Shown in pieces: positions 1,928 to 50,321 of a DNA stretch of 64,000 nt (the first letter of the stretch is position 1; each line of letters opens with the position of its first letter). Made by a program: the position numbers and the translations under genes. The stretch is from NCBI GenBank assembly GCA_043814605.1, contig JBDRJV010000022.1:85305-149304 (forward strand), read 5' to 3'. The notes under the pieces were generated by a model, which worked only from the letters and a program-made list of their open reading frames with translations, searched no databases and had not been told where the DNA came from. This DNA is from Candidatus Omnitrophota bacterium (lineage in GTDB: Bacteria; Omnitrophota; Gorgyraeia; B26-G9).

Positions 1928-2872
1928 TTATTGAGTCTTATCCCTTTGTTTTTTAATATAATCAATAACTTCGTCGATTTTCTTTTCAAGTTTCTGTTGT
2001 GGTTTGAATTTGATTGCTTTTTCTAGCCTTTGGTTATCTACGATCGAATTCCTTAATTCACCGGCAACTGCCTTAGTATAACTTGGTTTTAATTTTGGAT
2101 TAATCTTATTAATCAGAATTTTTGCGATCTGATTAACTGATGTATCAATTCCTGTGCCTACATTAAAAATTTTCCTATCTGTTTTTTTATTAAGCACCCG
2201 ATAAGTAGCTTCAACTATATCACCCACATAAACAAAATCACGCCGCTGTTTTCCATCACCAAAAATAACCGGAGATTTATTATCTAACAATCTGTTAATA
2301 AAAATTGTAATCACTCCTACATAAGGCGTAAATGTCTGGCCCGGGCCATAAGTATTAAAATAACGCAAAACAGTACTCTCTATACCTATTTGAGCGCAGG
2401 CAACTAGAACATATTTTTCTCCAGCCAGTTTTGCAATGCCATAAGGAGAAATCGGTTCTTTCTTATAATCTTCATTTATCGATTTTGGACGAGTACAATC
2501 GGCATAAACTGCCATAGAAGAAGCAAAAATAAATTTTTTTACTCTTTTAGAAACACGGCAAGCACGTAAAAGATTTAAAGTACCCATTATATTAGTGTAC
2601 GCATCTTCATGAAATTTATCCACCGAACCTCTTATAGTTACATTTGCCGCTAAATGAAATACCGCATCTACATTTTTAATCACCTGTTGCGCTAATTTAA
2701 AATCTTGAATATCTCCTTTAATAAACTTACACCCACTGGGAACATTTTCTTTCTTCCCGACGGAAAGATTATCAAGCACAACCGGAATTATTTTTGCTTT
2801 TAATAGCCTATGACAAAGATGCGAGCCAATAAAGCCCGCCCCTCCGGTAATTAATACTTCTTTGAATTTCAT
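1928..2872 (-). CDS. NAD-dependent epimerase/dehydratase (UDP-sugar 4-epimerase-like SDR)
   Basis: N-terminal Rossmann motif LITGGAGFIGSHL, YxxxK SDR architecture, 314 aa. Confidence 0.8.
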   Translation of the reverse strand: MKFKEVLITGGAGFIGSHLCHRLLKAKIIPVVLDNLSVGKKENVPSGCKFIKGDIQDFKLAQQVIKNVDAVFHLAANVTIRGSVDKFHEDAYTNIMGTLNLLRACRVSKRVKKFIFASSMAVYADCTRPKSINEDYKKEPISPYGIAKLAGEKYVLVACAQIGIESTVLRYFNTYGPGQTFTPYVGVITIFINRLLDNKSPVIFGDGKQRRDFVYVGDIVEATYRVLNKKTDRKIFNVGTGIDTSVNQIAKILINKINPKLKPSYTKAVAGELRNSIVDNQRLEKAIKFKPQQKLEKKIDEVIDYIKKQRDKTQ

Positions 2873-3014
2873 TTTTATTTTTTCCTACATTTTAAATCTT
2901 CAAGTCTTATGATCAATTCTTTGAAAAATTAAACCATTATTAAAATGGTGTTTGATGTTTATTTTATATTAGTCTTGTCTCTGAGAATACAATTTTTCAT
3001 TTTTATAGGATATT

Positions 3015-3827
3015 TTATTTTGCATTTTTACCGATATTTGAATTTATTCTTTTTCTTCTTGGCGCTATAAATGCACTTTTAGTTCCTGCATTTTCCCCTA
3101 TGGTTTTAAGCCATTTTTGATTGCACAAGAGAAGATCATCCGGAGTAGTTACATTCATATCCCATTTAACTACATCACAGACAAAAACTGGACACCCTTC
3201 TTCAATAAGCATTTGAATTGCAGTAGTAATCTCGTACTCATCACGCATTGCTGTTCTGGGAGTACATCTTATGGCATCAAAAATTGCCTGGCTAAATAAG
3301 TATATCCCACAACCTTTTAAATTCGTAGTCAAATATCGCGGTTTTTCAATAACTCTTTTTACCCTCTTGCTGTGGCCATTAAGAATAACCGTAAAGTTCT
3401 TTCTTATGGAAGATACATCTAGTTCTTTTTTTACTGCTAAAACCGCTCCGGCTTTTTCTTCTTTAAAAATTTTAATCATTTGTTTTAAATTTTTCGGAAT
3501 AATAAATATATCCCCCAGGAACAACATAAACGGACCGCTCACATATTTTTCCAGTTGCCCCACGGCATGAGCAATACCAATTTTTTCTTTTTGTTCAACA
3601 TATTTTATCTCAACACCGAAGCTGGAACCATCGCCAAAATAATTAATAATTTTTTCTTTTAAATGTCCGACTACAAATATATATTTTTTTATTCCTAAGC
3701 CGATCATAATTTCAAGCTGATATTGCATTATCGGCTTATTACAGATTGGTAAAAGCGGTTTAGGAAAATCCAAGCTTAAGGGTTTAATTCTTTCGCCTTT
3801 TCCGGCAGCTAAAATTATGCCTATCAT
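3015..3827 (-). CDS. Sugar-1-phosphate nucleotidylyltransferase (NTP_transferase family)
   Basis: MIGIILAAGKGERIKPLS...PKPLLPI signature of sugar nucleotidyltransferases. Confidence 0.8.
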   Translation of the reverse strand: MIGIILAAGKGERIKPLSLDFPKPLLPICNKPIMQYQLEIMIGLGIKKYIFVVGHLKEKIINYFGDGSSFGVEIKYVEQKEKIGIAHAVGQLEKYVSGPFMLFLGDIFIIPKNLKQMIKIFKEEKAGAVLAVKKELDVSSIRKNFTVILNGHSKRVKRVIEKPRYLTTNLKGCGIYLFSQAIFDAIRCTPRTAMRDEYEITTAIQMLIEEGCPVFVCDVVKWDMNVTTPDDLLLCNQKWLKTIGENAGTKSAFIAPRRKRINSNIGKNAK

Positions 3828-16833: not shown

Positions 16834-17982
16834 TTAAATAGTATTATAAAATTTCTTCAAAACACTAACAACCTTGTCTATTTGGACCTCAGTAAGTTCA
16901 GGAAACATTGGCAATGATAGAATTTCTTTGGAAACCTGCTCTGTTATCGGAAAAGTATCTCCTCTTAACCCTAAATCCTTATATGCTTTCAAAGCATATA
17001 TTGGAATAGGATAATGTATCCCGCACTGCACATTATTCTCCTGTAAATACCTTAGAAGCTCATCCCTTTTTTTCGTGCGGATAACATAAAGATGGAAAAC
17101 ATGCGATTCTACTGCTTCTAAGTCCGGAACTACAATATCGCCGATTCCTTTTAGTTTTTTATTATAGAGCTTGGCATTGGCAAACCGCTGATCACCCCAT
17201 TGTTTTAAATATTTTAATTTTACGCCTAATATTGCGGCCTGAACTGTATCTAAACGGCTATTAAATCCAATAAAATCGTGATAATATTTTTTCGGTGAGC
17301 CGTAATTACGCATCATTCTTAATTTATTGTAAAGAGTTTCATCTGGAGTCGTAATCGCCCCGCCATCACCGTAGGCTCCGAGATTTTTCCCGGGGTAAAA
17401 AGAAAAACAACCCATGATACCAAATGATCCTGTCTTTTTTCCTTTCCAGGTTGCTCCGTGAGACTGGCAGGCATCCTCAACAATCTTTAAATTATGTTTA
17501 TTTGCTATAGCTTGCAGTTTATCCATATCCACCGGACGTCCATATAAATGCACAGGGATAATCGCTTTAGTTCGAGGACTAATCTTTTCCTCTATCTTTT
17601 CTATATCCATATTATATGTCTTAGGATCAATATCAACCAGAACTGGTTTAGCCCCAGAGTATGAAATCCCGAGAACAGTTGCAATAAATGTATTTGCTAC
17701 AGTAATAACCTCATCGTCTTCTTTGATATCTAAAGCTTTTAACGCTAAATGTAATGCATCAGTACCTGAAGCAACTCCGACACAATATTTGCTATCACAA
17801 AATTCAGCAAATTTTTCCTCGAATTTTGCCACAGGCTCACCCAAGATAAAATTTGTCTGTTCAAAAACCTTATTTACTTCACGTTGAACTTCATCCTTAA
17901 TCGATTCATACTGAATCTTTAAGTTTACAAACGGAATCATTTTCTCCCTCCTAAAAAAAGCCGTGATTAAACTGCTACACAA
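16834..17982 (-). CDS. DegT/DnrJ/EryC1/StrS family sugar aminotransferase (WbpE-like); real start probably the internal MIPFVNLK about 14 codons in
   Basis: IPFVNL..QY...gene N-terminus, GTDALHLALKAL, SFYPGKNLGAYGDGGA PLP-lysine region. Confidence 0.88.
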   Translation of the reverse strand: MCSSLITAFFRREKMIPFVNLKIQYESIKDEVQREVNKVFEQTNFILGEPVAKFEEKFAEFCDSKYCVGVASGTDALHLALKALDIKEDDEVITVANTFIATVLGISYSGAKPVLVDIDPKTYNMDIEKIEEKISPRTKAIIPVHLYGRPVDMDKLQAIANKHNLKIVEDACQSHGATWKGKKTGSFGIMGCFSFYPGKNLGAYGDGGAITTPDETLYNKLRMMRNYGSPKKYYHDFIGFNSRLDTVQAAILGVKLKYLKQWGDQRFANAKLYNKKLKGIGDIVVPDLEAVESHVFHLYVIRTKKRDELLRYLQENNVQCGIHYPIPIYALKAYKDLGLRGDTFPITEQVSKEILSLPMFPELTEVQIDKVVSVLKKFYNTI

Positions 17983-18040
17983 ATATTATAATATTTATCG
18001 TTTCTCTAAAATAAAACATCTTGATTATAACATAGAGCTA

Positions 18041-19543
18041 TTATAATGAACAGTTATCGCATTTATGCTTTTTATTAAAATCAAAAATATGCCCCATTAC
18101 TTTAAAAAATGCTCGTGTAAAATATTTCATATCGTCAAGTTCTCTAATACTTAAAACTTTACGCATAATAAATTCCGGAGAAAAACTTATTGAATAAAGA
18201 CTTCGCACTAATTTCATTAAAATTTCCTGCGGAAACGGGATTTTCATCACCGGATTTTTCATGTCATAATAAGTCCAATCTAAGCTATACAGTAAATCTT
18301 TTTCCCGGCATTCATTAAATAAAGGAGTTCCCGGATATGGGATTACAATCGTTGATTGCATTGTATAAGCATAATCTTTTTTTAGTAACCATTTGCCTAA
18401 TTCTAAGGTATTTTGGGTATCTTCAAAACTTTCCCAAGGATAGCCAAACATAATTGTAATATGCGGATATAACCCGGCACTGCGCGCATTACGGCAGGAT
18501 TCAATTATGGTTTCTTTCCTAAGATTCTTTTTGATTTTATCTAATGTTTTCTGATTAGCTGATTCAATACCAAAAAGTAAAAAACGAAACCCGGCTTTAT
18601 GCATTAGTTTGTATTCTTCCAGACTTAAAGCGCCAAAACGCATATTGCAATCAAGTGTAACTTTCTTATTCAATCCGCGTTTAATCATGCCTGAGCAAAA
18701 TTCTCTCAACCACTCTCCTACAGGAAAACTACCGGAATCATCCATGATTTCTTTTACTTTTAACTCATTAACTAAATATTCAATTTCATCCAAGACATTA
18801 GCCGGTTTTCTACTTCTAAATTCAGGATATAAAACTGGCCAGGCGCAAAACGTGCATTTTCCCCACCAGCAATCTCTAGCACTCATAATATAAGTTCCCG
18901 GAGTCCTTCTAAAATTACCATTTTTATAAGCATATAACTTCCACTGTGTAAGTTTCCGGTCAATAAAAGGAAGTGTGTTTAAATCATGATTTAATTTAAA
19001 TTTTCCGGTATTTTTAATGTTTCCATTTTCTCTGTACCAGATTCCCGGCTCTAAATCAGCGGATAGCGAATAGCGATTAGCGGATAGTTTTAAGCTCTGG
19101 CAAAGGTTTAAAAGAAGAAAATCATAGTCCCCTCCGGTGAGCACAAAATCAACCAAAGAGTTGTCCATAGATTCTTCCGGTAAAGCGGTAACATGATCGC
19201 CGTATAAGACAACTAACGGCTGATAGCTCATAGCTGATTGCTGTTTAATATCATTGATTATTTTCCAGTGTTCCCTAACTACTGGAGTCTTTGTTTCGAT
19301 TGCAATCAGATCAGGTTTTTCTTTTTTTACAAAATTAAAAAACTTTTGATGACCCCATTCCATAGCAATGCAATCGTTCCAAATTACATTAAACCCCTCT
19401 CTTTTTAATAAAGACGCTGCTTGCGCCGGAACAACAGGATAGATATATGTAGGATCTTTAAAATACTGAAACTGCCTATTTTGAGAGAGTAAAGGTACCC
19501 CTTTGGTTTTGTCTAATGGAGGATAAGCTATCATTATTTTCAA
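18041..19543 (-). CDS. B12-binding domain radical SAM protein (second copy in the locus; cluster motif spaced CX4CX2C)
   Basis: N-terminal B12-binding-like domain, CWWGKCTFC Cys triad, 500 aa; contains an in-frame heptamer array at 19058-19087. Confidence 0.72.
   Translation of the reverse strand: MKIMIAYPPLDKTKGVPLLSQNRQFQYFKDPTYIYPVVPAQAASLLKREGFNVIWNDCIAMEWGHQKFFNFVKKEKPDLIAIETKTPVVREHWKIINDIKQQSAMSYQPLVVLYGDHVTALPEESMDNSLVDFVLTGGDYDFLLLNLCQSLKLSANRYSLSADLEPGIWYRENGNIKNTGKFKLNHDLNTLPFIDRKLTQWKLYAYKNGNFRRTPGTYIMSARDCWWGKCTFCAWPVLYPEFRSRKPANVLDEIEYLVNELKVKEIMDDSGSFPVGEWLREFCSGMIKRGLNKKVTLDCNMRFGALSLEEYKLMHKAGFRFLLFGIESANQKTLDKIKKNLRKETIIESCRNARSAGLYPHITIMFGYPWESFEDTQNTLELGKWLLKKDYAYTMQSTIVIPYPGTPLFNECREKDLLYSLDWTYYDMKNPVMKIPFPQEILMKLVRSLYSISFSPEFIMRKVLSIRELDDMKYFTRAFFKVMGHIFDFNKKHKCDNCSL
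19058..19087. repeat. Heptamer tandem array (AGCGGAT AGCGAAT AGCGATT AGCGGAT AG) inside the radical SAM ORF
   Basis: Read directly; 4.3 units of a degenerate 7-mer; GC-enriched versus flanks. Confidence 0.8.
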
Positions 19544-19544
19544 A

Positions 19545-20543
19545 TCAATTTTCCTCTTCTTTCATTTTTTTAGAACAAATTCCTTTTAGAAAAAAAAATC
19601 CGTAACAAATATGAGTAAAAAACATTCCACTTACAATAGGAATAAGCAGAAAAATTTTTTTCACAATTTTTAGCTGTTTATCTTTATATAAGCTCCATAA
19701 AACAGAAACAAATATAATGGAAAAATATAACAATAAACAAAAACTATAAATACTTCGCACAGTAGTATTCAGACAAGCTGTTACTACTCCGATTAAAACA
19801 AACAAAACAAACAAGCTGGGAATAAAATATACTATTTTACGTGAAGTTTCCGGAAATTTTTTGGCAAAATATCCCCGGTGCAAAGCATAATTAGCAACTT
19901 GTCTAAAATGCGCCGGACCCAAATTGCGGCGGAAATGATATACTAAAACATCCGGGTCATAAATAATTTTCATGCCTAGTTTTTTTGTAATATCCAGGCA
20001 TAATTTTGTATCCTCCCCCGGGTAAAAAGAACTGTCAAATCCGCCTAATTTTTCAAAGATACTTCTGCGCACAATAAAATTACATGATGGATAATCATTA
20101 ACTTGCATCTTTTTCTGAGGCAGATATCTATAAGTATACGGGCCACTAATAAAAACTGATGAAAAAATGTGTCCGCTGGCATGAGCTAAAACCGGGCTTT
20201 CCAAAGGGGTTATTGATGGCCCACCCACAGCAGCAACTTTAGAATCTTGAAAATTTTTCACAGCATTTATAAGCCAATCATGTTCAGGATATGCATCATC
20301 ATCTATAAAAGCAAAAATATCTGCCTGGGAATGTTTTAAAGCCATATCTCTTTTTTCCGCTGGCCCCATTGGCCCTGTAGGAATGCTTTTAATTTTATTT
20401 TTAAAATTTTCAAAGGGCTCATCCGGAAATATAATAATTTCAAACGATTTATAATCAAGTTTAAGACATTCCTCAATGCATTTCTTAAGGTTAACATTAA
20501 AGTGTTTAACCGGGATAATAATCGCCACTGATAAATTATTCAT
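19545..20543 (-). CDS. Family 2 glycosyltransferase with C-terminal transmembrane helices
   Basis: SVAIIIPVKHFN...DDDAYP GT2 core then two to four hydrophobic helices at C-terminus. Confidence 0.75.
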   Translation of the reverse strand: MNNLSVAIIIPVKHFNVNLKKCIEECLKLDYKSFEIIIFPDEPFENFKNKIKSIPTGPMGPAEKRDMALKHSQADIFAFIDDDAYPEHDWLINAVKNFQDSKVAAVGGPSITPLESPVLAHASGHIFSSVFISGPYTYRYLPQKKMQVNDYPSCNFIVRRSIFEKLGGFDSSFYPGEDTKLCLDITKKLGMKIIYDPDVLVYHFRRNLGPAHFRQVANYALHRGYFAKKFPETSRKIVYFIPSLFVLFVLIGVVTACLNTTVRSIYSFCLLLYFSIIFVSVLWSLYKDKQLKIVKKIFLLIPIVSGMFFTHICYGFFFLKGICSKKMKEEEN

Positions 20544-20586
20544 TTTTTAAAACCTCTCAAACAACACAGGTTTGCCCATCGGTAAT

Positions 20587-21882
20587 CTATAAAACAGGCC
20601 GGCCAACATCTGTATATCTAAATCCTAATTTTTTCATTCTTGCCGCTTCAAAAATATTCCTGGCATCAATAATAATAGGATGATTAAGCAGTTTTTTAAT
20701 CTTTAAAAGATTGAGCTTTTTAAATTCCGGCCATTCTGTGATAATAACTAATGCATCGCTGCCACGCGCAACATCATAAGCGTTTTTGCAAAAATCAACA
20801 TTCGGCAAAAGTTTTTTTGCATGTTCCATAGCTTTAGGATCATAAGCTTTTACCTGTGCCCCTTCACCTTGAAGCATTTTTATAATATCAATTGCCGGAG
20901 CACTACGAATATCATCAGTATTAGGTTTAAATGCAATTCCCAGAACACCAATATTTTTCCCGTTCAAAATCCATAAAGAATGTTCAATTTTTTTAAATAT
21001 TAGTTTCCTTTGTTTTTCATTAACGCGTTCGACTTCTTTTAAAATATCAAACTGACAATCCAGTTTTTCCGCAATTCGGATAAAGGCCTGAACATCTTTA
21101 GGGAAACAGCTTCCGCCATATCCAATCCCCGCTTTTAGGAAACTACTGCCTATCCTTTTATCTAAACCCATCCCTTCGGCTACCTTCTCTATATCTGCTC
21201 CGACTTTTTCGCAAATATTAGCCACAGAATTAATAAAAGAAATTTTCGTCGCTAAAAACGAATTGGAAGCATGTTTAATAATCTCTGCACTTTGAATATT
21301 TGTAACTACTATCGGAACTTTCAGCGGTTTATATAATTTCACTAGAAGCTTTTTTGCTTTTTCACTTTCCACCCCTAAAACCACCCGGTCAGGATGCATA
21401 AAATCATCAATTGCAGAACCTTCTTTTAAAAATTCCGGGTTTGAAGCAACATCAAAATCTATCTTGTGATTATTAAGCCGCATAATATATTTTACCCATT
21501 TATTTGTTTCAACCGGTACAGTGCTTTTTTCCACTACGACTTTATAATTATTCATATAGCGCGCCACATCCCGTGAAACTTGTTCGATATATCTTAAATC
21601 TGCATTACCGTCAGCCTTAGGAGGAGTTCCTACTGCAATAAATATTATTTTTGATTTTTCTACTGCCTTTTTTATATTTGTCGTAAAAAAAAGCTGTTTT
21701 TTTCTGCAATTTTTTTTGATTAACTTTTCTAATCCCGGCTCATAAATAGGGATTATGCCTTTATTCAATTCCTGTATTTTTTCTTCATTATTATCAACAC
21801 AAATAACCTTATTCCCGAGTTCGGCAAAACAAGTTCCAGAAACCAGCCCGACATATCCAGATCCTACGATAGCAATATTCAT
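20587..21882 (-). CDS. ugd: UDP-glucose 6-dehydrogenase (nucleotide-sugar dehydrogenase)
   Basis: MNIAIVGSGYVGLVSGTCFAELGNKV matches Ugd/TuaD N-terminus; 431 aa. Confidence 0.9.
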   Translation of the reverse strand: MNIAIVGSGYVGLVSGTCFAELGNKVICVDNNEEKIQELNKGIIPIYEPGLEKLIKKNCRKKQLFFTTNIKKAVEKSKIIFIAVGTPPKADGNADLRYIEQVSRDVARYMNNYKVVVEKSTVPVETNKWVKYIMRLNNHKIDFDVASNPEFLKEGSAIDDFMHPDRVVLGVESEKAKKLLVKLYKPLKVPIVVTNIQSAEIIKHASNSFLATKISFINSVANICEKVGADIEKVAEGMGLDKRIGSSFLKAGIGYGGSCFPKDVQAFIRIAEKLDCQFDILKEVERVNEKQRKLIFKKIEHSLWILNGKNIGVLGIAFKPNTDDIRSAPAIDIIKMLQGEGAQVKAYDPKAMEHAKKLLPNVDFCKNAYDVARGSDALVIITEWPEFKKLNLLKIKKLLNHPIIIDARNIFEAARMKKLGFRYTDVGRPVL

Positions 21883-21922
21883 TTTTATTTTTCCTTATTT
21901 TTATTAAATTCTAAATCCTGAT

Positions 21923-22861
21923 CTATATATTTTTTAATTTCCGAGAAAACCACTTTGCTGTCATATTAATTCCTTCTTCTAACGTAATTTTAGGCTCCCA
22001 TTTTAAGATTTTTTTTGCCTTTGTAATATCTGGTTTTCTTCTTTTCGGGTCATCCTGCGGTAATGGCTCAAATATTATTTTAGATTGCGACTGTACTGAT
22101 TTTATAATTAAATTTGCTAAATCAAACATATTATATTCTGTGGGATTACCTAGATTTAGCGGCTGTTGATAATCAGTTTCTATCAACCGGCAAATCCCTT
22201 CAATTAAGTCATCTACATAACAAAAAGAACGTGTTTGTTTACCATCTCCATAAATTGTCAAATCAATGTTTTTAAGCGCCTGAATAATAAAATTTGAAAC
22301 AACACGTCCGTCATCAATCTGCATATTAGGCCCATAAGTATTAAAAATTCTGATTACTCGCACATTCAGCTTATGTGAACGCATATAGGCATAAGTTAAC
22401 GCTTCTGCCCCGCGTTTACTCTCATCATAACAACTTCTTAATCCGATGGAATTAACATTCCCCCAGTATTCTTCATTCTGGGGATGCACTAACGGATCTC
22501 CGTATATTTCAGAGGTAGACGCAAGAAAAAATTTAGCCTTATGCATTTTTGCAATCCCTAAGCAATTGTGTGTTCCATTAAGCCCGGATTTTAACGTCTT
22601 AATCGGATATTTCATATAATGTACAGGGGATGCCAAAGAAGCGAAATGAAAAACCCAATCTAATTTACTGGCAAAACAAATCGGGTTTGAAATATCATGT
22701 TCGACAAGACTAAATTTAGGATTTTCTAAAAGAGGCGCAATATTCTCTCTTTGCCCGGTAATGAAATTATCTAGACAGATCACGCAATGCCCCGCATTAA
22801 CAAACCGCCTACATAAATGTGACCCTAAAAACCCTGCACCACCGGTAACCAGAATATTCAT
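21923..22861 (-). CDS. uxs: UDP-glucuronate decarboxylase (UDP-xylose synthase) type SDR
   Basis: MNILVTGGAGFLGSHLCRRF, 312 aa, UXS-like length and motif; directly downstream of ugd. Confidence 0.8.
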   Translation of the reverse strand: MNILVTGGAGFLGSHLCRRFVNAGHCVICLDNFITGQRENIAPLLENPKFSLVEHDISNPICFASKLDWVFHFASLASPVHYMKYPIKTLKSGLNGTHNCLGIAKMHKAKFFLASTSEIYGDPLVHPQNEEYWGNVNSIGLRSCYDESKRGAEALTYAYMRSHKLNVRVIRIFNTYGPNMQIDDGRVVSNFIIQALKNIDLTIYGDGKQTRSFCYVDDLIEGICRLIETDYQQPLNLGNPTEYNMFDLANLIIKSVQSQSKIIFEPLPQDDPKRRKPDITKAKKILKWEPKITLEEGINMTAKWFSRKLKNI

Positions 22862-22937
22862 GCTTAAACCCCATAAAACTCATTTGCATTACTATTTTTT
22901 GAAATAATTAAAAACTCTGATTAATAAATTTAAAACT

Positions 22938-23717
22938 CTATACTTTACTTTTTTCCCTGTTTAATTTAGCCGCTAAACGTTTTGTCCTATTTCTGACAAA
23001 ACGCAAATATATCCACAATGTATCAATACACATCTTATAAACTGTTCCCAATCCAATACGGGTATACTCTCTTTGCGATTGAATACAAACCGGAGCTTCC
23101 GCAATTTTGTATCCGCATCTGTGTATATTTACAAGTAATTCCAGATCAAAAGCAAATTCCCGGCTGATAAATTCACGAAACACATCTTTTAATACGTAAT
23201 GTTTAAAAAGTTTGAGACCAGTTTGGGTGTCATTGATCGGCAAACCAAAAATAATTTTAATAATAAAAAAATATATCACACTCATAATTCGGCGCTGGTA
23301 CGGATAAAAAAGCTGAGAATTGGGATGCATTTTTGAACCAATAACCACATCACTATCCGTTAACTGCATAATGTCAAAAAATGTATCTATTTGGCCGGGA
23401 TGCAAATCCATATCTGCATCTAAAAAAATAATGTATTCCCCCGTGGCAAAACGAAATCCTTTTTTTAATGCCCTGCCCTTGCCATAATTAGCTCTATTTT
23501 TATAGATATTTACATTATTTATAGAATTTTTCGTTATAAACTCTTTTACTTCTTTAAATGTTTTATCTTTACTGCCGTCATCAACAACAATAATCTCATA
23601 ATTTGATTTGAAATTATCAAATGTTTTAATCGTCTCTTGAAGGCTTGAAATAATCCGGTCATCCTCATTATAAGCCGGCATTATTATAGATATTTTACTT
23701 CCATTTAAATTCTTCAT
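22938..23717 (-). CDS. Family 2 glycosyltransferase (polyprenyl-phosphate glycosyltransferase-like)
   Basis: ISIIMPAYNEDDRI...VVDDGSKDKT...LDADMD. Confidence 0.8.
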   Translation of the reverse strand: MKNLNGSKISIIMPAYNEDDRIISSLQETIKTFDNFKSNYEIIVVDDGSKDKTFKEVKEFITKNSINNVNIYKNRANYGKGRALKKGFRFATGEYIIFLDADMDLHPGQIDTFFDIMQLTDSDVVIGSKMHPNSQLFYPYQRRIMSVIYFFIIKIIFGLPINDTQTGLKLFKHYVLKDVFREFISREFAFDLELLVNIHRCGYKIAEAPVCIQSQREYTRIGLGTVYKMCIDTLWIYLRFVRNRTKRLAAKLNREKSKV

Positions 23718-24961
23718 ACTCTTTCACTTTTTAATCCTAACGTATTAATAATAAACAGTCCGATAGAACAACCGCAAACAATATACATTACTTGAAGTAA
23801 ACTATTATGAAAAAGCTTTATCAATCCCGCTTGGAGCAAAACAAATACTCCAAAGATATAAATGAATTTCATATTGTGTACAGACAATTGATAATATAAA
23901 AACACACTACATAATGCATAAAAACTCATACTAATCACAAAAGGCATAACCAGCGGAATACACTCTGGATATACCGTTCCCGCAAGTGCTTTAAGTATTA
24001 AGTTAGGAAAAAGCATGCATATTGCACCTGCAATAAAAGACATTGTTCCCACAATAAATAAACTTTTTTTAAGTGTACCGGTTGTATCCTTATTTTGAGA
24101 GTGCTCTGCAGCTATTTTTGGGAACATAACAATTGTTATTGCTCCGGGTAAATAAAGAATGATCTTGCCGATCATTCTTGCTATCGCAAAATATCCTGCA
24201 TCTTTTGCCGAAAAATAAGGGCTGATTAACTGTAAATCCATATTCGTTAATAAAGCAAAGCTAAAAAGAGCAATAAATGCGGGAAAACAATATTTATAAA
24301 TCCCCCTTAAATCAAGTTTTTCATCAAAATCAGGACTATTTGCATTCGGTCTAAAGAAAAAAAACTTACGTAATGGGATAAAAGCAATAAGAAAGGCTAC
24401 TACTCCTGATATAATAAGCGCAGTTAAGGCCCCTCCTACTCTAAATCCTAATTTAACAATCAATACTCCTAACCCAACCCTTAATAAACCATTAGCAATA
24501 GAGGCAGTTCCTAAACTTTTAAACTTTTCCAGCCCTTGCAAAGCCCCCAGGTTCAGAGGTAAAATTGTTGATATAAACAACAGCACTCCCACAATGATTA
24601 TCAAAAATTCGTTATCAGTTTTATAATAAGTACTGATATTTGAGCGAAAGATAATAAAAACAAGGAGTATCCCTACTCCGACTAACCCCATTTTATATAA
24701 GAATAAACGTAGAAAAGAGCGGATATTATTGTATTTCTTTTCTGCTTTAAAACTAGATATAAACTTCGTTACTACTGCCTGCAAAGTTCCAGTTGGCATA
24801 GCTGTGATCAGTGTTAATCCCATTAACTTATCTAATAAACCAAAATCAACAGGATCTAGCGACCTAACCATAAATAGCTGGTAAAGCAGGGTAAAAATAC
24901 TCGTTAATGTTGTTGCAAAAAACATTATCCCAGCATTTTTAATAAAATTACTAATTTTCAT
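23714..24961 (-). CDS. Polytopic membrane protein, Wzx-like oligosaccharide flippase (MOP superfamily)
   Basis: 415 aa, about 12 predicted TM helices, first gene of the minus-strand glycan locus, 4-bp overlap with next GT2. Confidence 0.6.
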   Translation of the reverse strand: MKISNFIKNAGIMFFATTLTSIFTLLYQLFMVRSLDPVDFGLLDKLMGLTLITAMPTGTLQAVVTKFISSFKAEKKYNNIRSFLRLFLYKMGLVGVGILLVFIIFRSNISTYYKTDNEFLIIIVGVLLFISTILPLNLGALQGLEKFKSLGTASIANGLLRVGLGVLIVKLGFRVGGALTALIISGVVAFLIAFIPLRKFFFFRPNANSPDFDEKLDLRGIYKYCFPAFIALFSFALLTNMDLQLISPYFSAKDAGYFAIARMIGKIILYLPGAITIVMFPKIAAEHSQNKDTTGTLKKSLFIVGTMSFIAGAICMLFPNLILKALAGTVYPECIPLVMPFVISMSFYALCSVFLYYQLSVHNMKFIYIFGVFVLLQAGLIKLFHNSLLQVMYIVCGCSIGLFIINTLGLKSERV

Positions 24962-25143
24962 ATTTAATATATTGTAAATATTTTATATAGATAATTAAAG
25001 ATAAGGTTTTATTTTATCATCAAAGGTTATACGTGTCAACAATATAAGATGTAACATATTTAGTAATAAGTTGTTACGATAGTTTTAACGTTAAAAATAC
25101 TATTTCTTTAAAGTAGTATGGTTTTAGAGGGGAGAGATAATAC

Positions 25144-25953
25144 TTATTTTATATTATCCATACTGCCGGATCGATAGCCTTCGAGATCAACACAAATATA
25201 TCTATAACCGATTGAATTTAGAGCTTTAACTGATTTGTTATCAAGTAGTTTTATTAGCTTTACTATTTTATTTTTTGATACCTCAATGCGAGCAATATCT
25301 CCATGCACTCTAATTCTGAGTTGCTTAAAACCAAAATTTTTCAGTATTTTCTCAGCATAAGCAACTTTTGTTAATTTAGATCTAGTAAGATTAGTCCCAT
25401 AAGGAAACCTTGTTGCCAAACAAGCCTCTGAGGGATTATCCCAGATTTTAAGCTTTAGTTTTTGAGCCAGAGCCCGCACATCTGATTTGTTTATTTTAGC
25501 TTGGGCCAAGGGTGAGATTATGCCTAATTCTTTTAATGCTATTTTACCCGGCCGATAAACTTTAAAATCACTCAGCTGTGATCCATCCAAAACATGGTTA
25601 TATCCTTTTTTTCGGGCAAGATCTAATAATTCAGTCATTATTTTCTTTTTACAAAAATAACAACGCTTACGAGGATTAGCTGTAATAATTTTATCGCTTA
25701 ATATATCAATTTTAATCACTGTATGCTTAATGCTATATTTTTTTGCAAAAGCTCTCGCTGCCTTAACTTCTGACTGGGAGATAAAACTAGAATCAATAGT
25801 AACTGCCCAGACATTTTTTTTAACTACTTGACTACAAATTAGTAATAAAAAACTACTGTCTACCCCACCGGAAAAAGCCACCATAACTTTTCCCAGTTTC
25901 AGAATATTTTTTTTTAAATGATTAAGTTTTATTTTAAGAGACTGTTGCTTCAT
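25144..25953 (-). CDS. PP-loop ATP pyrophosphatase of the TIGR00268/LarE-like family
   Basis: SGGVDSS PP-loop, RCYFCK, and SEACLATRFPYG (SxACLASR hallmark). Confidence 0.7.
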   Translation of the reverse strand: MKQQSLKIKLNHLKKNILKLGKVMVAFSGGVDSSFLLLICSQVVKKNVWAVTIDSSFISQSEVKAARAFAKKYSIKHTVIKIDILSDKIITANPRKRCYFCKKKIMTELLDLARKKGYNHVLDGSQLSDFKVYRPGKIALKELGIISPLAQAKINKSDVRALAQKLKLKIWDNPSEACLATRFPYGTNLTRSKLTKVAYAEKILKNFGFKQLRIRVHGDIARIEVSKNKIVKLIKLLDNKSVKALNSIGYRYICVDLEGYRSGSMDNIK

Positions 25954-26008
25954 TTTTATCTTTTAAGAAAAATCCAGGTAAGTTAATTCACCAAAAGAAT
26001 AATCAAAC

Positions 26009-26845
26009 CTAATCCCTTATGATTAAGCCTTTTTTCTTTAAATAATCTTTAGTTTGCTTAATACTATATTTGCCGTAATGAAAAATAGAAGCAGCTAATA
26101 CTGCATCCGCACATCCTGCGCTTAAACCAGCATAAAGATGGGCTAAACTTCCGGCACCGCCTGAGGCAATAACCGGTATTTTTACTGCCTTTGATACTGC
26201 ACGTGTCAATTCCAGATCATAACCGGATTGTGTGCCGTCACAATCCATACTGGTGAGTAAAATTTCACCCGCGCCTAATTTTTCAACTTTTTTTACCCAT
26301 TGAATAACATCAATTCCAGTAGGTTTTCTTCCCCCGTAAATATACACTTCCCATGAAAGCTTCGACGAAGGACGAAGGACGAAAGACGAAGGACGATTTT
26401 TGAGACCTTTCCACTCTGTGGACTGTGGACTGTGGACTGTGGTCCGGCGCTTTGCATCCACTGCAACTACAATACACTGGTTACCGAATTTTCGTGCTGC
26501 TTTTTTAACAAGTTCAGGATTTTTCACCGCCGCTGTGTTTAAAGACACTTTATCCGCACCTTTTCTTAAGATTAATTCAATATCCGTAAGCGTTCTAATT
26601 CCTCCGCCAACTGTAAAAGGAATAAAAACTTCTTCGGCTGTTCTTTTGACCACATCCAGCATTGTTTTGCGATGTTCATGACTGGCGGTAATATCTAAAA
26701 AAACCACTTCATCCGCTCCCTGCTTTGAATACATCGCTGCCTGCTCAACCGGATCTCCGGCATCTCTGAGGTTGAGAAAATTTATTCCTTTAACCACCCT
26801 GCCGTTTTTCACATCCAGGCAGGGGATGATTCTTTTGGCCAACAT
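26009..26845 (-). CDS. hisF: Imidazole glycerol phosphate synthase cyclase subunit HisF, carrying a ~30-aa in-frame insertion
   Basis: [20 protein letters not shown] ... [20 protein letters not shown]; insertion [31 protein letters not shown] after DAKR, encoded by two heptamer arrays. Confidence 0.92.
26364..26396. repeat. Heptamer tandem array (GACGAAG x4.7, one unit GACGAAA) inside hisF
   Basis: Read directly. Confidence 0.85.
26417..26444. repeat. Heptamer tandem array (TGTGGAC x3, then TGTGGTC) inside hisF, 20 bp from the previous array
   Basis: Read directly. Confidence 0.85.
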
Positions 26846-27031
26846 ATAATTACCTCGTTTTACGGTAAAGGTTACGATGCCCGTATCGGCTTACGGTTAA
26901 GGCTAACGTCTTTTAAAATTCGTCCAAGCAGGGGATGATTAGTTTTGCCAACATATAGTTACCTCGTTTAACGGTAAAGGCTACGATGCCCGTATCGTCT
27001 TACGGTTAAGGTTAACGTCTTTTAAAATTTG
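26814..27031. repeat. 109-bp tandem direct repeat, 2 full copies (26814-26922 and 26923-27031) plus a third partial; copy 1 contains the hisF start codon and first ~10 codons, so copies 2 and 3 are decayed duplicates of the hisF 5' region
   Basis: Direct alignment of the two units shows about 11 mismatches of mixed type over 109 bp. Confidence 0.85.
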
Positions 27032-27407
27032 TCCAGGCATCCCCTAATTTATAGAGTTGCCTCCCTGACTTATCATACATATCTATAAGTTCTTCACATA
27101 AATCGATTTTTACAAAGTTAGAATAAAGATCTTTACATTGACTTAGGCTAACAATCATCTCATTACATTCTGCCATAGCGTCATCAATATACTTTTGAAA
27201 CCCGGCCTTCTGATGTCTTTTGGCATAACCTTCAGCAATTAACCTAGGAATTGTTTTGCATGCACGCCTTAATTGATCTACTAAATCAAATTTTTCACAA
27301 TCAGGCAATTTAGGAACAATCTCTTTCATTACCTTAAGCATTAGACTATATGTATTCTTATATACATCTAGATCATGAAAACTTGTGATCTTTTTATTAT
27401 TGTCCAT
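27012..27407 (-). CDS. Four-helix-bundle protein of the TIGR02436 family (23S rRNA intervening-sequence protein / Avd-like)
   Basis: FHDLDVYKNTY...LVDQLRRACKTIPRLIAEGYAKRH...AMAECNEM matches the family pattern F.DL.V...QxrRAAxSIPxNIAEGyxR. Confidence 0.85.
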   Translation of the reverse strand: MDNNKKITSFHDLDVYKNTYSLMLKVMKEIVPKLPDCEKFDLVDQLRRACKTIPRLIAEGYAKRHQKAGFQKYIDDAMAECNEMIVSLSQCKDLYSNFVKIDLCEELIDMYDKSGRQLYKLGDAWTNFKRR

Positions 27408-27470
27408 TTTCTGACCTTACCCCTATCCCATCAACGAAACGGGCTTCGTGACCGTAAGACTTTAACGAAA

Positions 27471-28103
27471 TTATTCTATTTCTCCCGCTATCTTACAAAA
27501 ATTTTCCAATATTTTTAATCCTAAATCAGAACTTTTTTCCGGATGAAATTGAATCCCATAGGTATTTTCTTTGGCAATAATACAGGCAAATTTCTGCCCG
27601 TACTCGGTTGTGGCCGAAACAAATTTTTTTTGCTTTGGCTTTGCATAATAAGAATGCACAAAATAAAAATATGATCCATCTTTAATTCCACTCAAGATGT
27701 TTTTACCTGCGGCTTGCGGCTTGCGACTTGAGACTTGTATCGTATTCCATCCCATATGCGGAATTTTTAAATTAGACTTAAATTTCACAACTTCCCCGGG
27801 AATTATATCCAGCCCCTTATGAACGCCGTGCTCATAACTCTTTGTTAATAACAGCTGCTGCCCCAAGCAAATACCTAAGAATGGCTTACCACAGGCTATC
27901 GCTGCCTTGATTTCCGGGATTAGTTTAAACTTACGCAAATTTTTCATACCGCTAGAAAATGCTCCGACTCCTGGTAAAATTAATGCCTTGGCCTGTTTTA
28001 ATTTATGAATGTTTGCAGTAACTTCGACTTTTGCTCCCACCTGCTCAAAAGCTTTAGCTACAGAATGCACATTTCCCATTCTATAATCAATTACGACAAT
28101 CAT
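27471..28103 (-). CDS. hisH: Imidazole glycerol phosphate synthase glutamine amidotransferase subunit HisH
   Basis: MIVVIDYRMGNVHSVAKAFEQVGA...GICLGQQLL...PHMGWN...YFVHSY; short in-frame heptamer-array insertion at 27707-27737. Confidence 0.92.
   Translation of the reverse strand: MIVVIDYRMGNVHSVAKAFEQVGAKVEVTANIHKLKQAKALILPGVGAFSSGMKNLRKFKLIPEIKAAIACGKPFLGICLGQQLLLTKSYEHGVHKGLDIIPGEVVKFKSNLKIPHMGWNTIQVSSRKPQAAGKNILSGIKDGSYFYFVHSYYAKPKQKKFVSATTEYGQKFACIIAKENTYGIQFHPEKSSDLGLKILENFCKIAGEIE
27707..27737. repeat. Heptamer tandem array (CTGCGGC TTGCGGC TTGCGAC TTGAGAC TTG) inside hisH
   Basis: Read directly. Confidence 0.8.
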
Positions 28104-28164
28104 TTTTTTTCCCTCTCATTGTAATCTATTTATAATTTTTTATTATATCAGAATATTTATATAT

Positions 28165-28192
28165 TTACAGAAACTTATTAAAATATTATAAT
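28165..28192 (+). promoter_or_regulatory. Putative sigma70-type promoter (TTACAG, 16-nt spacer, TATAAT) for the plus-strand GT2/rSAM pair in a divergent AT-rich intergenic region
   Basis: Hexamers read directly; spacing 16 nt; about 45 nt upstream of ATG 28238. Confidence 0.35.
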
Positions 28193-28237
28193 TCTTCTAT
28201 CACATATTGTAAACTCTGGATTACGATTATCTCAAAA

Positions 28238-29074
28238 ATGGGAAAACCATACTTTAGTGTAATTATTCCGACATATAATCGATCTCAATTTCTAAAAACA
28301 GCGATTGAATCTGTTTTGAACCAGACTTTTAAAGATTTTGAATTAATTATTATTGATGACGGCTCTCAAGACAATACTTATAACCTGGTTAAATCCTTTA
28401 AAGATACCCGCATTATTTATAAAAAACAAGAACACCAAGGAGTCTCTTCCAGCCGGAATCAAGGTATAATTTTATCCCGGGCTGAGATTATTGCTTTTCT
28501 TGATTCCGATGACCGGTTTAAACCCCAAAAACTTGAATTGGCAGCAGAATATATTGAAAAATTCCCGGATATCAGAATTTTTCACACTGAGGAATTGTGG
28601 TACCAGAGAAAAAAACTACTTAATCAGAAAAAAATCCATAAAAAACCGGATGGGTTTGTTTTTAAAAATTCTCTTAAACTTTGCTGTATAAGTTTATCAA
28701 CGGTTGTGACAAAAAAATCCCTTTTTAAAGAAGTAGGGCTTTTTGATGAAACTCTGCCTGCTTGTGAAGACTATGAGTTGTGGCTAAGAGCCTGTGTTAA
28801 ATATCCGGTTAAACTTATCCCTTATATTTTAACTTTAAAAGAAGGCGGCCATAGTGACCAGTTATCTAAAAAATATATTGCTATGGATACATTCAGAATT
28901 TATGCAATCGACAAGCTGTTAAAATCTAAAAAAATTACATTAACGCCTGAACAACGTGAAAATGCAATTAAAGAATTAAAGAAAAAATGCCTGATTTATA
29001 TAAAAGGCGCAAAAAAAAGAAATAAAACTAAAGAGGTTGAATCTTACTCAACTTTAATGCAATCTTACAGTTAA
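28238..29074 (+). CDS. Family 2 glycosyltransferase
   Basis: FSVIIPTYNRSQFLKTAIESVLNQTFKDFELIIIDDGSQDNT ... LDSDD. Confidence 0.8.
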   Translation: MGKPYFSVIIPTYNRSQFLKTAIESVLNQTFKDFELIIIDDGSQDNTYNLVKSFKDTRIIYKKQEHQGVSSSRNQGIILSRAEIIAFLDSDDRFKPQKLELAAEYIEKFPDIRIFHTEELWYQRKKLLNQKKIHKKPDGFVFKNSLKLCCISLSTVVTKKSLFKEVGLFDETLPACEDYELWLRACVKYPVKLIPYILTLKEGGHSDQLSKKYIAMDTFRIYAIDKLLKSKKITLTPEQRENAIKELKKKCLIYIKGAKKRNKTKEVESYSTLMQSYS

Positions 29075-30578: not shown

Positions 30579-31863
30579 TTGATAACGGAAATTATTAACC
30601 TAACCGGCCGGAAGGCCAGCAAAGGAGGCTATGCCATGAAGTCAGTAGATTTTTATAGTAGTAATGTAGCAAAGCAATGGCAGTATGTAAAGCGTAATTT
30701 ACGCGAGATGGGGTTATTGAAGATTACTGAAGGTTTGGATATAGAGACAAAGGCAAGGATGATCATAGAGCAGTTTTTTCAGCAAACAGTGTACGGGGAA
30801 TTCAGGAAACAGCTTCATGCGGATAGATATGAACGAAAAGCTGAACGCTATGATATACGTTCAGGATATTACAACAGAATGTTTACTAGTACATACGGCA
30901 TTTGTAATTTGCTTATTCCAAAAGTGAGGAAGAAAAGCCGGGAATATAACTATGAGTTATTTGATAAGTATCAGCGTAGGCAAAAGAAATTTGATGATAT
31001 GGTAGTATTGTCATTATTGTTGGGATTTTCTACGAGGAAACAGGAGCGATTTTTCAGGTCATTTATTGGAACAAGTGTAAGTCATAAGACGGCATCAAGT
31101 TTGATGCAAAATCTTAGTGATGATTTAAATGAATACCGCAACAAGAGAATCGAAGATAAATATAGATTTATATTTATTGACGCAATATGGGTAAACATAA
31201 AAGAGATAGACACTAAGAAGCGGCCGATATTATTTACAATGGGAATAAGTACCGATGGGCAACAAGAGATTATCGCGTTTAAGTTGGCAGAAGGCGAAAC
31301 AGAGCTAGAGTATACTAATTTTCTGAATGATCTTTACCGCAGAGGGCTGCAAGGTAAAGTATTGGAATTGATAATTCGACGGGTCTAAAGCAATTACATC
31401 AGCAGTAAAGACAATATACCCATATACGCCTAGGCAGCGTTGTTACACGCATAAATTAAGGAATTTACTGCAGAATATACGGTATAAGTTTAAACATAGA
31501 GCCAAGATATCAAAAGAAGTCAGAAATATATATAAAGCAGAGTCAAGGCAGGAAGCAATAAAAAGATTTAAAACATTTGTTGAAGCTTGGCGAAAAGTAG
31601 AACCTAAAGCGATTAAATGTTTTCAAGATGAGTTTTATAATACTCTTAATTTCTATGATTTTCCAAAGGAGATAAGAAGTGTGATTTCAACGACAAATCA
31701 TCTTGAGCGATTTTTAGAAGAAATTCGCCGAAGGATTAAGATTCAAGGGTATTTTAAAAGTGAAAGAAGCCTTAATCTTTGGATTTTTGGGCTTATTCAA
31801 CAAATACAACTAAAGCCCATACAACAACCTAAGAGAATGCTTAAAACTAAAAGTGCGAAATAA
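30579..31863 (+). mobile_element. IS256-family (Mutator-type) transposase gene disrupted by a single-nucleotide frameshift near 31375-31378. Likely true start ATG 30636 with AAAGGAGG SD; the C-terminal part 31378-31863 is in another frame
   Basis: N-part ...RRGLQGKVLELII then out-of-frame continuation DGSKAITSAVKTIYPYTPRQRCYTHKLRNLL (QRCxxHxxRN hallmark of IS256 transposases); combined length about 430 aa; IS ends not identified. Confidence 0.8.
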
Positions 31864-44564: not shown

Positions 44565-44594
44565 CTCTCTACTCTCTACTTGCTACTCGCTACT
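44565..44594. repeat. Heptamer tandem array (CTCTCTA CTCTCTA CTTGCTA CTCGCTA CTT) at the purM-purQ junction, overlapping the purQ stop
   Basis: Read directly. Confidence 0.8.
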
Positions 44595-45387
44595 TCTTTA
44601 AGTAATCAATCGCATTTTGAAAAATTTTTAAGCCATCCGGAATAAAATCCTGCTTTTTTCTTGTCCAATGCGGATGCTGCGTTTTAAACACACAGCGCTC
44701 AGGATGCGGCATTAAACCAAAAACCCTTCCGGTTTGATCACAAATTCCGGCGATATCAGCCAAAGAACCGTTTGGATTTTCCGGATATCTGGACAAACCA
44801 CCCTGCTTATTACAATATTGAAAAACAATCTGACCATTATTTTTTAATTTATCTAAAACTTGACCATCTCGGGCAATAAACTTACCTTCTCCGTGAGCCA
44901 CAGGAAGATAAATTACTTGATCAATGCCTCTTGTCCAAACACATTTAGAATCTTTTTTTGGATCACAATCGTTTGGTTTCTTCAAATATACCCAGCGGTC
45001 TTCAAACTTACCGCTATCATTGCAAGATAAAGTGAGTACTTGTTTCCAGTTTTTACTATCCGGCAGGATCCCCATTTTTACAAGTACCTGAAATCCATTA
45101 CAAATCCCGATCATCAATCCATTTTTATCCAAAAATTTATGTAAATTGGTTTTTAATTTTGTTTGTAATTCATTCGCCAGGATTACGCCGGCGGCAATAT
45201 CATCCCCGTAAGTAAACCCTCCGGGAAAAGTAATAATCTGATAACGAGAAATTTTATCTGCTCCCCTGACCAAATCATTAATATGCGTTACCGTCACACA
45301 CGCTCCCAGAAATTCAAAAGCCAATTTTGTTTCCTGGTCACAATTTGTGCCAGCCGTACGTAAAATTAGAACCTTAATACTTTTCAT
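44590..45387 (-). CDS. purQ: FGAM synthase glutamine amidotransferase subunit
   Basis: GTNCDQE ... GICNGFQVL ... HGEG ... MPHPER. Confidence 0.9.
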   Translation of the reverse strand: MKSIKVLILRTAGTNCDQETKLAFEFLGACVTVTHINDLVRGADKISRYQIITFPGGFTYGDDIAAGVILANELQTKLKTNLHKFLDKNGLMIGICNGFQVLVKMGILPDSKNWKQVLTLSCNDSGKFEDRWVYLKKPNDCDPKKDSKCVWTRGIDQVIYLPVAHGEGKFIARDGQVLDKLKNNGQIVFQYCNKQGGLSRYPENPNGSLADIAGICDQTGRVFGLMPHPERCVFKTQHPHWTRKKQDFIPDGLKIFQNAIDYLKK

Positions 45388-50271: not shown

Positions 50272-50286
50272 GATGTTCCTATTTTA

Positions 50287-50321
50287 GGCTACAGGTAACA
50301 GGTTTCAGGTTACAGGCTAAA
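50287..50321. repeat. Heptamer tandem array (GGCTACA GGTAACA GGTTTCA GGTTACA GGCTAAA) in the purB-purL intergenic region
   Basis: Read directly; 5 units. Confidence 0.85.

Follow-up and report, generated by a model that had tools for sequence, protein, structure and literature searches.

We analyzed a 64-kb stretch of DNA from a Candidatus Omnitrophota bacterium (contig JBDRJV010000022.1), which we call the window and whose positions are used throughout, and in it the spacer that separates hisH from hisF. This spacer holds a small gene for a four-helix-bundle (4HB) protein. The window has a G+C content of 34.9%. The three genes form a row on the minus strand: hisH (27471-28103), the 4HB gene (27012-27407) and hisF (26009-26845). 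The first encodes the glutaminase subunit of imidazole glycerol phosphate synthase (210 amino acids, aa; 241 bits with TIGR01855, cut-off 105.4) and the last its cyclase subunit (278 aa, intact; 390 bits with TIGR00735, cut-off 294.55). The spacer, 26846-27470, is 625 bp long and is bounded by the TAA stop codon of hisH (27471-27473) and the ATG of hisF (26843-26845). An initial annotation of this DNA had reported the 4HB gene and a 109-bp tandem repeat within the spacer, and we find all of these features where it had put them. The 4HB gene is part of a unit of about 0.5 kb, here called the cassette, which fills the entire spacer; its imperfect inverted arms, each about 50 nt long, adjoin the start and stop codons.

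On the minus strand the cassette's left (5') arm, TTTCGTTAAAGTCTTACGGTCACGAAGCCCGTTTCGTTGATGGGATAGGGG with the core ACGAAGCCCGTTTCG, occupies 27420-27470 and directly adjoins the TAA stop of hisH. The right (3') arm exists on the same strand in two copies. Copy A, ACCTTAACCGTAAGACGATACGGGCATCGTAGCCTTTACCGTTAAACGAGGTA (26960-27012), adjoins the 4HB gene and continues into a copy of the hisF Shine-Dalgarno sequence; its pairing with the left arm and its near-identity to the arm of a relative (L001; L-numbers denote comparison loci or contigs) mark it as the original. Copy B (26851-26903) adjoins the real hisF start and is the duplicate. Upstream of hisH, a consensus scan gives a promoter-like site, TTTACA-17-TATAAT, at 28185-28213 on the minus strand, a pattern match only, with 11 of 12 matches. 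This putative promoter is the probable start of a hisH-4HB-hisF transcript. A pattern scan found no terminator-like site on the minus strand between hisH and hisF.

The product of the 4HB gene (131 aa) belongs to a family named '23S rRNA intervening sequence protein' and passes both family cut-offs, with 65.1 bits for PF05635 (cut-off 33.8) and 53.4 bits for TIGR02436 (cut-off 24), the family to which the initial annotation had assigned it. Its sole sequence match in the PDB is to 2GSC (XCC0516; E = 9e-6, residues 9-86). The family has a conserved motif, RxxxSxxxNxxE (Lin et al. 2006; Zhang et al. 2013, PMC3936711). In the alignment with XCC0516, RRAAVSIPSNIAEG stands opposite RRACKTIPRLIAEG: the R and the E of the motif are kept, while S is replaced by T and N by L. 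The 4HB proteins of two other loci (L002 and L003) retain the S, and at the N position they also have L. Relative to its relatives the gene has a dN of about 0.02 and a dN/dS of about 0.05. Such a low ratio shows that the 4HB protein is functional and under strong purifying selection. PADLOC returned no match for it, and an exact look-up of its sequence in a contig index gave no record.

The initial annotation also called the gene Avd-like, after the accessory variability determinant of diversity-generating retroelements (DGRs). The label describes only the fold. It does not extend to function: Pfam and NCBIfam scans of the 17 open reading frames (ORFs) within about ±10 kb, which did not include a search for template and variable repeats, revealed no reverse transcriptase, so the 4HB gene is not an Avd in the functional sense. 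Nor did solved Avd structures give a sequence match to the 4HB protein. The neighbours within the same distance are genes for glycosyltransferases, a flippase, a LarE-like protein, radical SAM enzymes and NrdD, and a fragment of an IS256-family gene.

On either side of the gene lies one half of a perfect 10-nt inverted repeat, ACCGTAAGAC at 27451-27460 and its exact reverse complement, GTCTTACGGT, at 26997-27006; CGAAACGGGCTTCG is a near reverse complement of CGATGCCCGTATCG. Motifs shared between the far flank (27420-27470) and the repeat had been noticed before; they are present, but as inverted and not as direct copies. The core motif ACGAWRCCCGTWTCG occurs three times in the window, every time at the hisH-hisF locus, against 0.21 occurrences expected. 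The left arm and right arm A are predicted to form an imperfect duplex of about 50 nt with an energy of -44.8 kcal/mol (-23.2 for shuffled arms), closing beside the 4HB start and stop codons; the left arm with right arm B gives -42.8 kcal/mol. The base of this predicted stem joins AUUUCGUU and AACGAGGU. The closing stem is present in both the minimum-free-energy and the centroid folds of the 671-nt RNA (z = -2.1). Since the duplication the left arm has two near-equal alternative partners, right arms A and B. The minimum-free-energy fold of the whole region picks the distal arm, which places arm A and a 13-codon ORF (see below) inside the loop.

The same design is found well beyond this genome. 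There are 2,690 homologues of the 4HB protein at E <= 0.001, the closest of them 70-96% identical, and those that carry a name come from Candidatus Omnitrophica/Omnitrophota. A scan of metagenome contigs yielded 80 further 4HB loci, which we pooled with the loci obtained from the nearest relatives. Further TIGR02436 genes with similar flanks, envisaged in the initial annotation, do exist: the arm design recurs in about 80 other loci. In the family, the upstream arm, ...GGTTACGGTAACGAAGCCCGTATCGGTAACGGTAACGTAA-ATG, ends at the start codon and the downstream arm, TAA-CCGAAAGACGAAACGGGCATCGTAACCGTAACC..., its inverted counterpart, runs from the stop codon. Both have a GCCCGT/ACGGGC core and, around it, heptamers of the GGTTACG/GGTAACG type. 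Of 87 4HB loci, 60 contain the exact core motif; 80 control hisF loci from other organisms do not contain it at all. For 71 non-redundant loci, the best duplex that the 70 nt preceding the ORF can form with the 70 nt following it has a mean of -36.3 kcal/mol, compared with -23.6 kcal/mol for shuffled sequences (p = 4e-12), and the duplexes mostly close a few nucleotides from the start and stop codons. RNAalifold, applied to a MAFFT alignment of 21 canonical loci, gives a core helix of 16 pairs, three of which show compensatory (two-sided) changes. The commonest mismatch in the arms is A opposite A, on either side of the core. It is strand-specific (56 A/A vs 21 U/U), and the conservation of these mismatches hints that one of the strands is recognised.

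The operons that harbour these cassettes have little in common. The order hisH-4HB-hisF is found again in L001. Elsewhere the 4HB gene stands between the genes for a histidine kinase and a sigma-54 response regulator (L002), or between the large (leuC-like) and small (leuD-like) subunit genes of an aconitase family (L003, L004). The upstream neighbour is co-oriented with the 4HB gene in 61 of the 67 loci where this could be called, and both neighbours are in 40 of 53; typical spacers on either side are 50-100 nt long. Arm pairs without an ORF, or arm cores in series, occur at some of the loci (L002, L089, L097, L100, L106, L128 and L132). At L002 (3880-3990) and L089 (2370-2500) such ORF-less arm pairs or arm-core arrays adjoin 4HB cassettes, and several arm cores are seen at L097, L100 and L132. 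At L147 and L150 the two arm types surround the ORF in swapped order. The arrays and the swapped order suggest frequent duplication, deletion or inversion at the arms.

Is the cassette as old as the genes that surround it? The synteny hisH-4HB-hisF-LarE-like gene-flippase is common to the window, L001 and L166. By Nei-Gojobori estimates in three pairwise comparisons, synonymous divergence (dS) is 0.36-0.41 for the 4HB gene and ranges from 2 to saturation for hisH, hisF and the LarE-like gene. A sliding-window comparison shows a block of 85-100% identity that extends exactly from the hisH stop to the hisF start, with flanks at about 70%. In L167 the 4HB gene occupies a different site, between the UDP-glucose dehydrogenase gene (ugd) and hisH; its protein is 96% identical to that of the window (93% for DNA), whereas the HisH proteins are only 73% identical. 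Among the metagenome loci, three pairs (L089/L093, L089/L090 and L149/L163) have cassettes that are 92-97% identical in DNA, yet outside the arms, over 480 nt on each side, no similarity can be detected. In syntenic pairs, too, the cassette is regularly more similar than its flanks, as in L146/L158 (98% vs 76%). Where the same cassette is present at different sites, it begins 0-3 nt from the stop codon of the upstream gene, and its right end comes shortly before the ribosome-binding site of the gene that follows. The contrast in dS, the identity block, the site in L167 and the pairs with unrelated flanks thus show a cassette lineage that is much younger than the flanking genes, has been exchanged between genomes and is present at different sites. 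The initial annotation had suspected a mobile or selfish passenger, and a gene whose related copies sit in many unrelated operons, with a dS several-fold below that of its neighbours, bears this out.

The 109-bp repeat is another matter. Tandem Repeats Finder reports it at 26814-27039 with a period of 109, 2.1 copies, 90% matches and a score of 382. There are 2.07 copies: two units, 26923-27031 and 26814-26922, which differ at 10 of 109 positions, a similarity far beyond chance. On the coding strand a unit begins with the last 8 codons of the 4HB gene (AWTNFKRR and the stop), passes through a 57-nt spacer and ends at hisF codon 11. What had been described as two full copies and a partial one are therefore two full units, the remainder being just an 8-nt overhang; and the unit, which had been taken to comprise the hisF start and its first ten or so codons, does run through codon 11 but also starts inside the 4HB gene, so that it spans the boundary between 4HB and hisF. 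The overhang is a microhomology: TGCCTGGA occurs at 27032-27039 in the 4HB tail and at 26814-26821 in hisF, and TGCTTGGA at 26923-26930 marks the middle junction. Repeated pseudo-starts had been described upstream of hisF. There is only one, a closed ORF of 13 codons at 26913-26954 on the minus strand (translation MLAKLIIPCLDEF, followed by the stop), composed of hisF codons 1-11 and the 4HB tail in another frame and preceded by its own GAGG Shine-Dalgarno sequence.

L001, L166 and L167 have cassettes that are 95-96% identical and 57-58 nt from the 4HB stop to the next start codon, which corresponds to a single unit. Because these relatives hold a single unit, the duplication appears to be specific to the lineage of the window and later than the arrival of the cassette. 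This does not agree with the suggestion that the repeat is the footprint of an insertion: both copies lie downstream of the ORF, and the three relatives have no repeat. For the same reason of position, a target-site duplication was ruled out. Copy A is 92-100% identical to L001 in 40-nt windows; at positions that these two have in common, copy B shows changes of its own. This distribution would fit a constrained original arm and a freer duplicate, and the changes in copy B imply that the duplication is not very recent. The hybrid junction at the 8-nt microhomology is of the kind left by slipped-strand or illegitimate recombination, and the hairpin-forming arm may have promoted the slippage. 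In the single-copy relatives the hisF Shine-Dalgarno sequence (AACGAGG) is predicted to lie in the base of the stem, paired with the AUUUCGUU that comes after the stop codon of hisH. The duplication would have placed the real hisF start 109 nt beyond the stem formed by arm A, with possible consequences for hisF. By itself the duplication is of local interest only.

The initial annotation further proposed that the insertion displaced or deleted hisA. The canonical arrangement, with hisA between hisH and hisF and other his genes adjacent, is not seen in the window, and neither hisA nor hisI was found in its 64 kb. A distant Omnitrophota genome (L059) has the canonical hisH-hisA-hisF-hisI. In L006, another member of Omnitrophota whose HisF is 74% identical, the hisH-hisF slot contains neither hisA nor the 4HB gene; a GxxExxY/PF13366 gene is there instead. 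Since a relative without the 4HB gene also lacks hisA in this slot, the loss of hisA is not tied to the cassette. A relative of this kind that also carried the 109-bp repeats had been named beforehand as the mark of an ancestral leader; L006 lacks hisA, but it has no such repeats. Cassettes of the family are lodged between one gene's stop codon and the ribosome-binding site that follows, with no loss of genes, and nothing suggests that the 4HB cassette removed hisA. In the window, hisH and hisF are located within a polysaccharide cluster (16834-29074) with genes for glycosyltransferases, a flippase, an epimerase, UDP-glucose dehydrogenase and an aminotransferase, and no further his gene is present in the 64 kb. 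Most simply, the his genes of this lineage would be scattered, and small cassettes would land in the hisH-hisF spacer as they do in other tight spacers.

We also considered whether hisH and hisF, given their place in a polysaccharide cluster beside a PP-loop ATPase gene, might be glycan-amidation paralogues of the WbuY/WbuZ type, in which case the idea of a hisA slot would lose its basis. This fails at the level of sequence: the 390 bits of the window HisF with TIGR00735 equal the score of the operon HisF of L059, which is canonical, and the protein is below the WbuZ cut-off. Beside hisH and hisF there is a gene for a LarE-like PP-loop ATPase (25144-25953), and the order hisH-4HB-hisF-PP-loop ATPase-flippase is kept in L001 and L166.

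How can these observations be explained? We consider it probable, though by no means certain, that the spacer is occupied by a dispersed, horizontally mobile cassette resembling the intervening sequences (IVS) of 23S rRNA, that the 109-bp repeat is a separate and later duplication, and that the absence of hisA is unrelated to either. The PF05635 4HB ORF would lie in the loop of a long imperfect stem; the first arm begins immediately behind the upstream stop codon, and the second finishes shortly before the downstream ribosome-binding site. Such a cassette would have no promoter of its own and would be transcribed with the operon from the operon promoter. If the arms pair in the RNA, as those of the 23S rRNA IVS do, their duplex may be a substrate for double-strand-specific processing (by RNase III, as for the IVS), or it may mask the start region of the 4HB gene. 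The strongly conserved 4HB protein would then serve the element. Later, and separately, a duplication mediated by the microhomology TGCCTGGA would have taken in the 4HB gene's final 8 codons, hisF as far as codon 11 and all that lies between. The right arm and, for hisF, both the Shine-Dalgarno sequence and the start would have been doubled and the 13-codon upstream ORF made, with both genes left intact.

A more speculative suggestion goes beyond this locus. IVS-type elements may form a general class of mobile cassettes in the spacers of protein-coding operons across Omnitrophota, moving between genomes and sites, with ORF-less forms and with a second cargo, GxxExxY/PD-(D/E)XK, between arms of CACAGAG-type heptamers. 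The 4HB protein would be the maintenance or mobility factor of the element, acting on the stem. We put this forward tentatively and would not be surprised if it turned out to be wrong.

A number of points weigh against the IVS-like reading. The data on the genome itself are those of the 64-kb window. No target-site duplication is visible at the boundaries mapped from one cassette at different loci, and neither a transposition enzyme nor an empty site was found. The low dS of the 4HB gene could in principle reflect selection on synonymous sites. The arms of the window are degenerate relative to the family consensus. Rfam models gave two tRNAs and noise only, and no rRNA, whether the whole window was scanned or, with permissive settings, the locus. 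The pairing of the arms in RNA, with the role that would follow from it, is proposed by analogy with the 23S rRNA IVS. The sense strand has only a small advantage over the antisense strand in arm energy (-36.3 vs -34.1 kcal/mol, p = 0.027), and G-U wobble-type mismatches are not significantly enriched in it (38 vs 30, p = 0.40). With so small a difference between the strands and no enrichment of wobbles, the arms could equally be terminal inverted repeats at the level of DNA. The compensatory changes in the arms are to be expected with an RNA stem and with a DNA inverted repeat alike.

The most serious alternative is a non-autonomous transposon, similar to miniature inverted-repeat transposable elements (MITEs), in which the 4HB gene is cargo, the transposase or recombinase is encoded elsewhere and pairing in RNA is incidental. 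Inverted arms of about 50 nt at both ends, a single cassette lineage at unrelated loci and wobble-type mismatches with no significant strand asymmetry are what one would expect of it, and the ORF-less arm pairs and arm arrays resemble the decay of MITEs. Nevertheless we regard it as rather unlikely. It is accompanied by no target-site duplication at the mapped boundaries, and transposition alone would not be expected to produce co-orientation with the upstream gene (61/67) or the exact placement between stop codon and ribosome-binding site. The A.A mismatches that flank the core are strand-specific (56 A/A vs 21 U/U), and no partner transposase has been identified; nothing connects the arms with the IS256-family fragment nearby. 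Another idea is that the 4HB gene is an ordinary, vertically inherited gene of the hisH-hisF operon, that its flanks are regulatory or mRNA-stabilising hairpins and that purifying selection accounts for all of the conservation. The synteny kept in the window, L001 and L166 and the dN/dS of about 0.05, which indicates a protein under selection, would both accord with this. Yet the synonymous divergence of the 4HB gene is at least five-fold below that of all three flanking genes, and the non-coding right arm is 92-100% identical when the flanks are at about 70%. A near-identical cassette occupies another site in L167, others are found in many unrelated operons, and in L006 the slot holds a different passenger. 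The dS contrast, the identity block and the cassettes at unrelated sites largely refute vertical inheritance already, and we regard it as very improbable.

The repeat raises a question of its own, namely whether two strain variants were joined in tandem during assembly. The sequence probably comes from a metagenome-assembled genome, a divergence of 9% between the copies would suit two strain variants, and the duplication is seen in no relative. However, a clean hybrid junction at an 8-nt microhomology between two non-homologous genes is the signature of duplication in vivo. Artefacts of De Bruijn graphs are identical overlaps of k-mer length, not 109-bp copies at 91% identity, and both flanking ORFs are in frame and intact. 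An assembly artefact is thus improbable, and we continue to treat the repeat as a duplication that followed the arrival of the IVS-like cassette.

Several observations made along the way deserve mention. L006 has two GxxExxY / PD-(D/E)XK (PF13366) genes, at 1400-1930 and 2780-3370, each inside inverted heptamer arrays, ACCACAGAGAGCACAGAG ... CTCTGTGGTCTCTGTG. One is in the hisH-hisF spacer and the second comes after hisF, and the arrays consist of CACAGAG/CTCTGTG heptamers. By their arrangement these genes are apparently a second type of cargo in the same cassette architecture. Heptamers also occur in frame within genes of the window: GACGAAG x4.7, CTGTGGA x3.9 and TGCGGCT x3.3, the arrays being situated at 26364-26396 and 26416-26442 in hisF and at 27708-27737 in hisH. 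In HisF they make up a loop insert of some 25 aa, which lies between 'DAKRR' and 'WEVY' and varies in length: HisF has 278 aa in the window, 261 in L001, 284 in L166, 278 in L006 and 252 in L059, and in L006 the insert is built of other heptamers, of the GGACTTCC type. Four more arrays were found at 19058-19087, 19219-19243, 44565-44595 and 50286-50316, two of them inside a radical-SAM ORF (18041-19543) and two intergenic. The array at 50286-50316 (AGGTTAC x4.4) is of the heptamer type of the 4HB cassette arms and has no arm core. Finally, an ORF on the plus strand (30579-31388) that starts with TTG encodes a Mutator/IS256-family transposase of 269 aa. This copy is probably truncated, because its profile match covers positions 18-226 of 379 only.

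The function of the PF05635 protein and the spread of IVS have been open questions since 1993. The locus described here, a well-bounded IVS-like mobile cassette in an mRNA spacer, may help to explain a family that has been without a function for three decades. Unlike the single-copy IVS of rRNA, intact cassettes in mRNA spacers that are under purifying selection offer clear boundaries, many insertion sites, ORF-less derivatives and a contrast in age with their surroundings. Comparison and the simple mapping of RNA ends would make it possible to test how targets are chosen and what the arms and the protein do. There is also a warning for annotation: a small gene between subunit genes, or a missing hisA, need not mean that an operon is decaying. 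Cassettes of this kind can mislead inference based on guilt by association, and this may have happened for cas loci.

We know of several systems with which the cassette and its duplication can be compared. The 109-bp repeat is like other microhomology-mediated tandem duplications in having two head-to-tail units with 8-nt shared ends, confined to one lineage. It differs in that its unit reaches from a mobile cassette across into a host gene, so that a structured arm was copied along with a translation start. Families of intergenic repeats include MITEs, repetitive extragenic palindromic elements and bacterial interspersed mosaic elements (REP/BIME), and the short tandemly repeated heptamers of cyanobacteria (STRR). 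With these the cassette shares short repeats built of heptamers, inverted-repeat hairpins in spacers and ORF-less copies. The difference is that the repeats of the cassette bracket a conserved protein cargo with a strong orientation bias, and no partner transposase, REP-associated (RAYT) or other, is known for it.

Among relatives of the protein, the Avd of DGRs has been linked to PF05635 (PMC10053308) and belongs to the same broad four-helix-bundle superfamily as the 4HB protein. PF05635 genes also occur inside operons in other phyla. In Pleurocapsa, for instance, cmr3 and cmr2 have one between them (Zhang, Doak & Ye 2013, PMC3936711), and there, as here, a 23S_rRNA_IVP gene stands between two genes of one functional operon. 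The Pleurocapsa case was read as a possible cas association, and flanking arms or mobility were not described there (PMC3936711). In the papers that we found the PF05635 protein is still termed uncharacterised (PMC11270868; PMC4990558), and a literature search found no description of PF05635 cassettes flanked by arms in operons.

The closest parallel is the IVS of 23S rRNA. IVS that contain an ORF are known from Leptospira and Coxiella burnetii (Ralph & McClelland 1993; Warrier et al. 2016, PMC4990558), and in Coxiella the element ends in a stem of 28 bp, carries an S23p ORF within the loop and is cut out by RNase III (PMC4990558). The cargo is of the same family (PF05635, 'S23p') and the size is similar, about 0.43-0.5 kb. 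Here too complementary termini are found, and they are predicted to form a stem with the ORF in its loop. Both would be part of a host transcript, in the case of the cassette by analogy, and for both there is evidence of horizontal transfer. The cassette differs in its place, an mRNA spacer between protein genes and not helix 25 or 45 of 23S rRNA. Since it is outside an rRNA gene (the Rfam scan revealed no rRNA in the window), it is IVS-like in its build without being an IVS in the strict sense. With about 50 nt its arms are the longer ones, and they are imperfect and based on heptamers. Whereas the ORF of Coxiella is decaying and apparently not expressed, the cassette protein is under strong purifying selection.

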